DNA from: a virus
Taxonomy: Duplodnaviria > Heunggongvirae > Uroviricota > Caudoviricetes
IMG/VR virus record: IMGVR_UViG_2690316316_000010
Coordinates: 1 to 8,484 of that record
Direction: 5' to 3' (one strand)
Length of the DNA: 8,484 nucleotides
Part shown: positions 1 through 3,000 of the stretch, piece by piece
Layout of the letters: every line of letters starts with the position of its first letter
How positions within the stretch are numbered: the stretch's first letter is position 1
Made by a program: the position numbers

Positions 1-3000
1 TCAGCTTTTCGCCAGAACGGTGACGGCCTTATCGAGTTTTTGCCATCCGCAATAGGTGATTGCCCTGAACGCTGTAGCGTCATTCTGGAAAAGGCTAACC
101 GCCCCTGATTCGGTTTTTATTACCGCCTCATCAGTTGGGGTTATAACCGTGGCTTCAACGTTAATAATCAGCTTTTGAGCGTCTATCAGCATCATGCGAT
201 CCGCCTGTTCGCTCACAATTACCGGTATTCTCAAAAGCTCTATCTGCCAGAACTCAGCATCAGTAAGCTGTAAGGCGTTTTCTACGGGCAAGATTAGCGA
301 CGACGTGGAAAGCGTGTTACCGTTCGCTATGTGCTTTTTGAAAAGCTCTATGAAGTTTTCGGCCTCATCAGCACCATTAAGCACGCCCTCAGGGGATACG
401 CCAGCCACCTCCTGGTCACTGGAAAGAAATTTTTTATCTATTTCTTTCACCGATTCCGATGTGATCAAGTCTCTGATCGCTGAATTTGTACCAGGGGTGC
501 TAAATTTGATTAGCTCGTTATTCAGCATCACAATAGCGCCAAGTTTGCACAGTTTTAGCGCACTTTCGTTTACTTCTCCCTCTTTGACAGGGATTTCTTC
601 GGCTTCTTTAAGCCATTTACTGCCCTTGCCTGATATTGACTGCAATTTTGCGCCAAAAGGAAGATTTAGCGCGCTGCTGATTAGCTTGCCTGGTACAGAC
701 TGCGAAAAAATATACTCGCCAAGCTCTCTTACTATCGGCTCTGCCACCAGCGACGGCATGTTATCCGTGTTCATTCCTGCTACTACGGATTTTTCAAGAA
801 ATAACGATACTGCCGGATCATTTCTTTTCGTCATCTCTATAGCGTCAGCATGGCTAAATTTACACGATGCCAGCACGCTGGCGGCGCGAACTGCTGACAC
901 GCCTTTCATGTTTTTACAGATCATCTTCTTCCTCCTCCTGGAAGCACGGGTTTAGTGTTTCGTGAAAATATGGCATCAGAACAGCGGCGGCCTGTAACCG
1001 TATTTCGGTCGACTGCTGCTTGTCGTTCATGATTTCCGTGAGTACATCAATAGGGTCTGTGATGTATTCGCTCATAGTTCGCTACCTCAGTGTTTTAAGT
1101 CTGTTGGTGGCTTAGGGATGGGGAACCGATTTGAGTAGACACTAGCGGCATTGAGTTTTTTAACCTCTTTTTTCCCAATGCTGCCGATCTTGCGGTGGGT
1201 GAACTGGGCCAGCTTAAACGCGGCATCTAAAGCCAGTTTTGGATCTGTGTCCATGTTGTCAATCAGTATCCTGCCCATTGCTTTGATGGGGTCGGGTAGG
1301 CCGTTATCCATCATCTCAATGGTGTTAATTGATGCCCGTTCCGGTGTAACTTTTTCGGTAACTTTCTTTGTAACTTTTTTCGGTTTTGTAACCTGAAAAG
1401 TTACATCAGGAGTTACAGCCTTAAGATACTTTTTCACCTCAGGATCGTTGGATAGCTGCCAGCCTTTGACCCTTGCGGTCTTTTCGCTGTATCCCGCATG
1501 TATAGCGGCTTCCGTGGGATTTGCGCCCCTTGATAACGCATCAGCAAACCGCTTTTTTTTGGTCGTTAATGCCATGCAAAAACCTCGTTTTGAGGGGGTG
1601 TAACTTTTCGTGTAACTTTTTTGAAAAGCAAAATTTTCTACGAATGAGACGGGGGGCGGTGTCCAGGGCGATCGACTTTCCGGCCGGAACACTCCCCCCC
1701 CCTGTCATTGCTCACCGAGTAACGAGATCAGGCCTTCAACTTCATCACTCAGCTTGTTTATTCGTCTCTCAAGCTCTGCGATCTTTTCCATTAATGGCGC
1801 TATCGTGTCTCTTGTTTCCTCGCCAATGGCTTTAATGATGCTTGCCTCGCGTTCTGTGATAGCCATTGTTATTCCTCACCTGTTGCAATGCCCAGGCGTT
1901 CGCGTAACAGCACGCGAGCAAGATGGCCTACTGTTGGCGTGGCGGCTCTGCCGTATATACCAGCTTCATTCATCCGGCGAATAACATCGAATTGAAGTTT
2001 TTTAAGCTCGTTTAGGATCTCGTGATCAATCATCACGGTAGCGCTTTGCTTTATCTGTTCCACTTTGTTTCCTCCTGATGCTTATCATCTAATAATCAGT
2101 ATTTTCGATAGATTATAATCAATCAACCATTTTTTAAGATATGCGAGATCGAAAAAAAGCCGGATTGCTCCGGCTATGTGTTCACTACTTCGGTTATTCT
2201 CCAGCGCTTTTAACGTTGATGGTTGTTACCTGTTCCGCTTCGGCAATCTCCCGTTCTGTCAGCGTGGCAAAGTTTGCCGCCGTCGTGGTCATGAATGCGC
2301 TTATCAGGTCGGGATGTGCTTTCGCGTATCCTTCCCCCGCGTGGCGGTCTATCGTTCTGATTGCCACCTTTAAGGTATGCTCAGTCATGTCTAACGCTTT
2401 ATATTTTGGCTCTGTTCTGTCTCTGCGAATTTTGATCATTTGTCGCCCCTGATTCATGTTTTCGGCTGGCATGTTTGTTAAGTGATTTTGATGTATGCGC
2501 ATTTATTTTCACCCCCTCGTTTAAAAAGTTTTTAGTTGTGCCTCCCCCCCTCTACCCATCTACCCGAATGCTCATCATGTCAGTAATGGCGCGGCTTTCA
2601 GCGGGTAGATAGCTTTTTGGGCTCCTCTACCTGCCGTCTACCCTGCTACCTGAAACTGATAAAATCAGGTAGAAGAGGTAGAGAGCTTTTATTAGCCTTC
2701 TACCTGGCCCTCTACCCACTTATCATGTTGAATAATATGCGTTTATTTCATTCAGGTAGATGGGGTAGAGGGCTTTTACAAAAAATTATAAAAACGCGTC
2801 GCAATCGTCTGTTGTAATTGCGTTGGTCTGCGTTACTCCCTTAACTTTTCGCGTAATATATTCATGCCCGTAAACTTTCGCCGCTGGCTTCATGGCCTTG
2901 CTGAACTCAGCCACGTTTAGCGGTTTGCTCCTGCCTGCGTATGCCATAAACGCCAGATAGACGCGGTAAAGGCTGTTCCTGGTCGTGTACTTCACTGAAT

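Follow-up and report, generated by a model that had tools for sequence, protein, structure and literature searches.

Gram-negative phage-inducible chromosomal islands (PICIs) of the EcCICFT073 type carry int and alpA, followed by pri-rep and iterons, are transcribed in one direction and have a capsid homolog near the 3' end together with helper cos sequence (PMC6092414). Small satellite proteins from the packaging region, Ppi in Staphylococcus aureus pathogenicity islands (SaPIs) of the pac type and Rpp in cos PICIs such as EcCICFT073, bias packaging to the satellite (PMC6739421). In addition, SaPI1 CpmB and SaPIbov5 Ccm are satellite imitations of a helper head protein that remodel its assembly (PMC5644958; PMC5052747 for Ccm). 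Here we describe an island with features of these systems, located on an 8,484-nt stretch of Caudoviricetes DNA (positions 1 to 8,484 of IMG/VR record IMGVR_UViG_2690316316_000010, in the following called the window). We concentrate on two small genes upstream of terS, which encode a protein of 64 aa and one of 53 aa (53a). Our analysis confirms that both are real genes and supports an earlier interpretation of them in part: they stand at the head of a late hijack operon, but are unlikely to be terminase modulators.

By its gene content, the island belongs to the Gram-negative PICIs that PMC6092414 describes. It contains int, alpA and a pri/rep gene with adjacent iterons, the gene set of the window lies entirely on the minus strand (Table 1), the length of ~8.2 kb from the capsid-homolog gene to int, beside tRNA-Pro, is within ~8-15 kb, and a helper packaging signal (cos) is present. 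Unlike EcCICFT073-type PICIs, it has its own Terminase_2 TerS, and its probable helpers are HNH-type Shiga toxin (Stx)-converting phages, not lambda or phi80. The imitation of helper morphogenetic proteins would have its counterparts here in 53a, the capsid homolog and TerS. PMC6092414, PMC6739421 and PMC11364771 make no mention of the two lead genes.

Both genes are found, on the minus strand, at the positions that an earlier sequence-only reading of this DNA had given for them, and they have the strong ribosome-binding sites that it proposed. The 64-aa open reading frame (ORF) opens with a GTG at 2063-2061, and the perfect Shine-Dalgarno (SD) sequence AGGAGG claimed for it is found at 2076-2071, with a spacer of 7 nt. 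When the duplex energies with the anti-SD were ranked against those of the 788 ATG/GTG/TTG triplets of the window, of which 0.9 % attain -9.5 kcal/mol and 2.3 % attain -8, the value of -10.3 kcal/mol placed this start among the top ~1-2 % of start-like triplets, and an internal ATG at 2033 has no SD (-0.1). The N-termini of distant homologs are of equal length (MTTKKAKSISVMLD...), which favours the GTG start; the 54-aa version at NCBI, starting at Met11, is probably mis-started. The 53-aa ORF begins with an ATG at 1866, and its SD GGTGAGGA (1880-1873) lies within the final codons of the 64-aa gene; its duplex energy of -7.3 kcal/mol belongs to the top ~7 % of the 788 triplets. Between the TAA stop and this ATG there are 2 nt (1868-1867), which makes the first base of the start codon the third one past the stop, in agreement with the offset of 3 nt in the earlier reading.

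Selection acts on both frames. Among 13 distinct alleles, 20 of 29 variable sites in the 64-aa gene fall on codon position 3 (binomial p = 9e-5) and 8 of 10 in the 53-aa gene (binomial p = 0.003). The pooled in-frame ratios of nonsynonymous to synonymous polymorphism (pN/pS) are 0.147 and 0.105, compared to 0.7-10 in the other two same-strand frames. The lack of such conservation had been named in advance as a refutation, and the genes pass this test. ORFs on the opposite strand (76, 104 and 35 aa) were rejected as real genes, having a pN/pS >1 or stops in some alleles. The DNA of the pair occurs in 220 of 5,426 complete Escherichia coli genomes with 90.6-100 % identity, always with both genes together, and PGAP annotates both in every copy inspected; in RefSeq they are hypothetical proteins (WP_000435078.1 and WP_001018603.1). 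One gene was said to be missing from the ORF track; this is true of the length-filtered track, but not of RefSeq/PGAP. The SD sites, pN/pS, third-position bias, conservation as a pair and PGAP annotation confirm that both ORFs are genuine genes under purifying selection.

An exhaustive HMMER search over 1.84 billion representatives yielded three credible relatives of the 64-aa protein (70-80 aa), and a subsequent profile search added a fourth. These distant homologs are 36-48 % identical and all of them are encoded in PICI-like satellites (loci L024, L026, L027 and L028). The family shares the motifs S/T-V-M-L/I-D-x-E/D-I, M/V-N-x-x-G-x-x-G and G-H/Y-x-x-R. No homolog was found among 50,697 phage records or in the helper-type genome, and PADLOC gave no match for the 64-aa protein.

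The AlphaFold2 (AF2) model of the 64-aa protein (predicted local distance difference test, pLDDT, 83.6) consists of an extended N-terminus, a helix at 14-33 and a helix at 45-57, and thus places a strand and two helices within ~45 residues. This predicted strand-helix-helix topology is that of ribbon-helix-helix (RHH) proteins, and the size is similar as well (~45-65 aa for Arc and Mnt of P22, CopG of pMV158 and the N-terminal domains of TraM, ParD and MazE). Furthermore, the pattern S/T-V-M-L/I-D-x-E-I is what an RHH strand leading into a helix N-cap would show, and the structural neighbours of the model are mostly RHH domains, with the N-terminal RHH domain of TraM as the best one and the antitoxins ParD, MazE and TacA included. 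Compared to these RHH proteins, helix 1 is unusually long (20 residues) and the loop is glycine-rich, with 11 residues and the invariant G35 and G38. The absence of a profile match and the confinement to PICI-like satellites also distinguish the protein from curated RHH families; a search of IMG/VR with the RHH motif pattern recovered only nine E. coli-type contigs. As a part, the RHH-like leader is of an ordinary kind; its family is new and very small.

In each of the four int-alpA-primase/helicase satellites, the distant homolog is the next gene to follow the replication module, past a gap of 280-480 bp. What follows differs: 53a homolog, 798-aa tape-measure-like protein and capsid homolog in L024; 53a homolog, capsid homolog and lambda gpI-like protein in L027; portal, short TerS-like protein, homolog of a second 53-aa protein (53b, see below) and capsid homolog in L026; portal and capsid homolog in L028. 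Three of these operons (L024, L027 and L028) have no terS. Because the gene always leads the unit, whatever cargo follows, the 64-aa protein is best read as an operon regulator, most likely an RHH-like DNA-binding protein acting on the late operon, as its modelled fold suggests. CopG and many antitoxins are likewise encoded first in the unit they control. DNA binding and autoregulation would be in line with the gene position and the predicted fold.

The region in front of the gene has the layout of an operon start. A strong intrinsic terminator, a hairpin with a T-run, precedes the late operon in the window, and a terminator-like hairpin and T-run precede the homologous RHH gene in L024 and L027, within the gap. 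The putative sigma-70 promoter downstream of the terminator scores 8/12 against the consensus; the threshold of the scan was 9/12 and the promoter was therefore read from the sequence. TTGAT(T/A)-17-AATACT aligns between the window and L028 although the RHH proteins are only 40 % identical, and the 13 E. coli alleles show no variation at positions 2097-2116, the -10 hexamer and the 20 nt beside it being constant. An imperfect 18-bp palindrome, GATTGATTATAATCTATC at 2124-2107, overlaps the -35 hexamer and the spacer and is a candidate operator. A relation of the promoter to helper late promoters (a Q-dependent pR'-type hook) was dismissed, there being no significant similarity anywhere in the helper-type genome. 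Since no terminator is predicted between 1705 and 1575, co-transcription of the small genes with terS is plausible. The pair stands, as had been claimed, at the head of the unit that contains terS; it does not abut terS, because a cos-like site of 129 bp lies between them.

The TerS of the island is 46 % identical to the TerS of Stx1a-, Stx2c-, Stx2a-converting and related lambdoid phages (115 records). HNH-type Stx-converting lambdoid phages of the Stx1a and Stx2c type are probably the helpers of the island, to which its TerS, capsid homolog, cos core and 53a all point. In their head module, HNH, cos, TerS and TerL are followed, in this order, by a protease-capsid fusion of 645 aa, a portal of 454 aa, a 461-aa product with the annotation "portal protein B" and connector proteins. 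This second "portal protein", here called X, is encoded in the Stx1a phage LC567819 at 30915-32300 (L049), immediately behind the portal gene, with an overlap (30915-30918) between its start codon and the stop codon of the portal. Some annotations join X to the portal, as does the 859-aa phrog_2271 profile, of which X forms the C-terminal half. The N-terminus of X is helical; about four to five repeats of ~47 aa (IPVPxDGxD...) and a CBM_5_12-like C-terminal domain follow. It is present in 92 phage records of the same groups as the 115 TerS-related ones (Stx1a-, Stx2c-, Stx2- and Stx2a-converting, "Enterobacteria" and Escherichia phages).

A hidden Markov model (HMM) of the 53a family, run against the six-frame ORFs of LC567819, had the N-terminus of X as its sole significant match (E 2.3e-5; MTERELSIIRALGEEFSTVLADLQRT against MAITEREASIIKAIGEETRDTIAPLMEK). 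Reciprocally, an HMM of X N-termini, with the homolog of a Salmonella phage included, ranked the 53-aa ORFs at the top of 2,455 ORFs (E 1.9e-5). In hhalign, 53a and X aligned with a probability of 91.4 %, an E-value of 9e-7 and 54 % identity over 24 columns, and in a PHROG scan 53a weakly matched positions 1-47 of phrog_1289 (E 0.005), the family to which X belongs. These sequence comparisons show that the N-terminal 24 residues of 53a are homologous to the N-terminus of X. The full architecture of X, with N-terminal helix, repeats and C-terminal domain, is not found in 53a; the shared part ends after ~24 residues, or ~47 at most, and 53a is therefore a fragment-like mimic and not a member of the X family.

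Homologs of 53a with 42-55 % identity are encoded in L024, L027 and L048, all of them satellites without terS; L048 is a single divergent member added by a metagenome scan. The family keeps the N-terminus M-A/P-I/L-T/S-E-R-E/D-x-S, varies in the middle and ends with the invariant EVEGLISLLGE (11 residues). The AF2 model, built on a shallow alignment without the divergent homologs, is one uninterrupted helix over residues 5-51 (pLDDT 94), and by eye an a/d heptad pattern runs from I22 to L50. None of the 50,697 phage records encodes a full-length homolog, PDB chains showed no sequence similarity at a meaningful E-value, and Pfam, NCBIfam and PADLOC scans returned coiled-coil noise only. In the search for relatives of the small proteins, Foldseek against viral models gave nothing significant. 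Among species-representative genomes, neither a TerS-anchored scan nor the degenerate EVEGLISLLGE pattern found relatives, and in IMG/VR the pattern recovered only the same nine E. coli-type contigs as the RHH motif pattern. The name "antitermination protein NusG" on some NCBI records of 53a was discarded, as there is no NusG domain and no other support.

In the satellites without 53a (L026 and L028), the same slot holds a portal that is 60 % identical to the helper portal and lacks the last ~37 residues. Together with the similarity to X, this suggests that 53a is probably a decoy at the portal or head of the helper, and not at TerS. The sequence-only reading had expected interference with the helper, which is thus plausible for one of the two genes, at the portal or head; the proposed link to TerS is not supported.

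The main alternative, which we consider unlikely, sees in 53a a CpmB-like internal scaffold that builds small capsids together with the capsid homolog, its invariant C-terminus binding the capsid protein. Like CpmB (PMC5644958), 53a is a small helical protein. It is all-helical with a heptad pattern, and its last 11 residues do not vary between homologs whose identity is otherwise 42-55 %. In every satellite with a fully visible operon it is accompanied by the capsid homolog, and in L048 and L027 it lies just or almost just upstream of that gene. The capsid homolog itself is Ccm-like: it corresponds to the major-capsid domain only of the helper protease-capsid fusion (residues ~311-657 of the 645-aa protein, E 7e-14). 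A precedent is given by the SaPI1 scaffolding proteins CpmA and CpmB, which compete with those of the helper (PMC5644958). However, the part of 53a that is shared with the helper is the N-terminus, not a capsid-binding end matching the helper scaffold, and the helper protein concerned is the post-portal protein X, neither a scaffold nor the protease-capsid fusion with its scaffold-like linker. In addition, L026 and L028 have the capsid homolog without 53a, there is no sequence similarity to solved structures, CpmB is absent among the matches and no sequence similarity to CpmB was detected.

The 129 bp between 53a and terS match the helper cos core, followed by two satellite-specific AAAAGTTACAC repeats. 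Directly past the 53a stop, the minus strand reads CAGGGGGGGGG...CGATCGCCCTGGACACCGCCCCCC, with the core CGATCGCCCTGGACACCGCCCCCC at 1674-1651. The site contains a G9 run (1702-1694), an imperfect 20-nt inverted repeat (1700-1681 and 1670-1651) and the AAAAGTTACAC direct repeats at 1620-1610 and 1608-1598, all given for the minus strand. No other non-coding part of the window matches the nucleotide sequence of LC567819 significantly; this block does so with 79 % over 68 nt (E 2.6e-9), and in the phage it lies directly after the HNH nuclease gene and ~230 nt before terS. It is also found in L027, directly after the 53a homolog, and in L024, between the tape-measure-like gene and the capsid homolog. 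The deposited genome of the related phage Lys8385Vzw starts and ends exactly at the block (...GGACACCGCCCCCCCT and CTCACGCAGAG). Past the core, the phage, L024 and L027 have GTTAAC-type repeats and the window has the AAAAGTTACAC repeats instead. By analogy with lambda cosB (PMC6739421), the island may keep the cut site of the helper and supply its own TerS and cosB-like TerS-binding sites.

It is improbable that the 64-aa protein serves as a DNA-processing accessory near cos, which would aid the cut by terminase and HNH or the choice of the island cos in the way of TraM/TraY at oriT or IHF at lambda cosB. The N-terminal RHH domain of TraM is its best structural match, no more than 360 bp separate the RHH gene from cos in the window and in L027, and the helper-type phages have the HNH nuclease, needed for such packaging, just upstream of cos. 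In L024, however, a 2.4-kb gene separates the RHH-53a pair from cos, while L026 and L028 have the RHH gene and no detectable copy of this cos core. The constant position of the RHH gene is after the terminator and promoter, not beside cos, and the promoter and cos regions have no repeat in common.

A Ppi-like or Rpp-like function, in which one or both small proteins would bind the TerS of the helper and redirect packaging to the island, had been the original suggestion for the pair. Both genes precede terS and share its orientation, no terminator is predicted in between, the proteins are small, satellite-specific and have no homologs in 50,697 phage records, and the operon is clearly a packaging/hijack module. 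Against this, homologs occur in satellites without terS (L024, L027, L028 and L048), so that genetic linkage to terS across elements is not seen; the cosB of terS-less satellites resembles the phage GTTAAC repeats and these satellites therefore need no specificity factor. Rpp works with the helper TerS in islands without a TerS of their own, whereas this island has a full-length TerS and its own cosB repeats, which makes Rpp-type redirection unnecessary. In sequence searches of the PDB, neither protein matched any chain at a meaningful E-value, and no similarity to Ppi or Rpp (RppA/B/C) was detected; the structure of RppC is reported as solved (PMC6739421), and RppC is absent among the matches. 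The only helper similarity found is that of 53a to X, not to TerS, and the cos-like site puts the 64-aa and 53a genes on the opposite side of cos from terS. The suggestion is thus mostly unsupported and in our view very unlikely.

A better candidate for a TerS-directed or Ppi-like protein than either of the two lead products is 53b, the product of the second 53-aa gene. It matches the core of the TerS family phrog_641 (positions 89-125, E 3.5e-7) and the TerS of Burkholderia phage Bcep176 (36 % identity, E 1e-3), and a homolog is located in L026 (7698-7859), just before the capsid homolog. BLASTP of 53b against the island's own TerS gave no alignment. As judged from these matches, 53b is a possible TerS decoy.

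The pair could also be a toxin-antitoxin or anti-phage defence cassette, made up of an RHH antitoxin and a small effector, or consist of functionless decaying remnants; we regard this as hardly credible. The genes are tightly coupled by the 2-nt gap, RHH antitoxins (ParD, MazE and TacA) are among the structural neighbours and PICIs carry defence genes beside pri (PMC11364771). This defence hotspot, however, is situated directly after pri and upstream of the terminator, not at the pair, PADLOC gave no hit, the acidic single-helix 53a is unlike known toxins and L026 and L028 have a portal in place of the partner gene. The strong purifying selection speaks against decay.

Our best explanation, held with moderate confidence, is that an RHH regulator and an X-mimicking decoy head the late hijack operon of an enterohaemorrhagic-E.-coli-type PICI. 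The late operon would start at its own promoter just past the terminator and run through cos into terS, 53b and the capsid homolog. The 64-aa protein would bind its own promoter region and regulate the operon, and such autoregulation would explain the constant lead gene despite the varying cargo. As a long coiled-coil helix with its first ~24 residues copied from X, 53a would occupy the interface by which the N-terminus of X docks or oligomerises at the portal or head, and thereby bias head assembly toward the satellite.

Several points weigh against this explanation. No match of the 64-aa protein to a curated RHH family was found in Pfam, NCBIfam and PHROG, even at E = 10 with six family members, and a profile search of the PDB found nothing. 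The second E. coli allele class (L011) has lost the palindrome seen at 2124-2107, although its predicted DNA-reading strand is identical; no operator repeat is common to all members of the 64-aa family, only allele-specific palindromes. The homology between 53a and X is limited to ~24 residues, and the invariant EVEGLISLLGE, without a counterpart in X or the helper-type genome, is explained by neither the decoy nor the scaffold reading. Moreover, the 53a family is tiny (E. coli alleles and 3-4 divergent members), the pattern "portal or 53a" rests on five satellite types, X has no PDB relative and no paper on it was found in a literature search, and we infer the identity of the helpers from similarity in TerS, capsid, portal and cos.

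A more specific version, which we put forward tentatively, is that 53a docks via the motif shared with X on the site of X at the portal or its C-terminal tail and excludes X, that related satellites reach the same end with their own portal minus ~37 C-terminal residues, and that the RHH protein sets the time by gating the late operon. If this is true, portal-accessory mimicry would be a third route of helper exploitation, beside capsid-size and terminase redirection, in parasites of Shiga-toxin phages.

Table 1. Positions of features in the window and of portals in two related satellites
Feature	Positions	Strand	Remark
Integrase (int)	8484-7267	-	Window
AlpA	6892-6704	-	Window
Region with C4-type antisense RNA and Icd-like ORFs, then DUF4222 protein		-	Window
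D5-type primase	4534-2786	-	Followed by GGTAGA-type iterons
102-aa protein, phrog_1231	start 2502	-	Next to primase
Intrinsic terminator	2158..2175	-	AGCCGGAGCAATCCGGCT and T-run; ends upstream replication/accessory unit, insulates late operon
Putative sigma-70 promoter	2098..2126	-	TTGATT 2126-2121, 17-nt spacer, AATACT 2103-2098
64-aa gene	1869..2063	-	GTG start; ribbon-helix-helix-like; first gene of late operon
53-aa gene (53a)	1705..1866	-	ATG start; modelled single long helix
cos-like packaging site	1576..1704	-	129 bp between 53a and terS
terS (Terminase_2)	1087..1575	-	phrog_641, full length
Second 53-aa gene (53b)	914..1075	-	Acidic tail and TerS-core-like segment
Capsid-homolog gene	1..924	-	307 aa, HK97-type; last island gene
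Satellite-encoded portal, L026	5881-7146		Missing segment is the one preceding (or fused to) X in phages
Satellite-encoded portal, L028	6229-7494		Missing segment as in L026

A copy of the island with 99.8 % identity is integrated in E. coli FDAARGOS_946 between yejO and tRNA-Pro/yejM, and a related copy in O157:H7 between clpS and cspD; the capsid homolog is the final island gene in both. Islands of ~8-9 kb at the tRNA-Pro/yejM-yejO and clpS-cspD sites contain int, alpA, D5 primase or RepA helicase, TerS and the capsid homolog, and the two kinds of replication module are exchanged among islands with a common late operon. The 64-aa gene and its upstream region (1869-2150) form a separate high-divergence cassette with a synonymous polymorphism (pS) of 0.215, compared to 0.04-0.06 in the 53-aa gene and terS. 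This 4-5-fold excess over the neighbours and the swapped replication modules point to modular recombination.

In the related satellites, the tape-measure-like gene of L024 (6407-8803) and the gpI-like gene of L027 (PF06805, 4038-4622) lie inside the late operon, which suggests that some satellites of this group interfere with or borrow tail assembly.

Upstream of the primase, Rfam matches above the gathering score identified a C4 antisense RNA (72.6 bits) and its a1/b1 target at 5278-5365 and 5433-5482 on the minus strand. Their position beside two Icd-like ORFs suggests a P1/P7-type c4-icd module inside a PICI. For the phrog_1231 gene, the SD at the 102-aa start (2502) has a duplex energy of -12.2 kcal/mol and the one at the RefSeq 81-aa start (2439) -5.7 kcal/mol, and RefSeq may have chosen the wrong start. 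A 1.9-kb query hit 1,599 genomes, of which only 189 match at least 80 % of it; the segment with the widest distribution among them is a part of this gene. A Tai-like or Rpp-like role of the 102-aa protein was set aside, as it had no phage or PDB match.

The more interesting results are the mimicry of X by 53a and the mapped cos site. Through this analysis, two "hypothetical proteins" become a candidate late-operon regulator and a candidate decoy with a defined 24-residue interface, next to a cos site with satellite-specific repeats. X itself is probably important, because a parasite copies its N-terminus. Carriers of the island make up ~4 % of the complete E. coli genomes, and many of those listed are enterohaemorrhagic serotypes (O157:H7, O111 and O103); proteins that hinder head assembly or packaging of Stx phages would influence how these phages are produced and how they spread.

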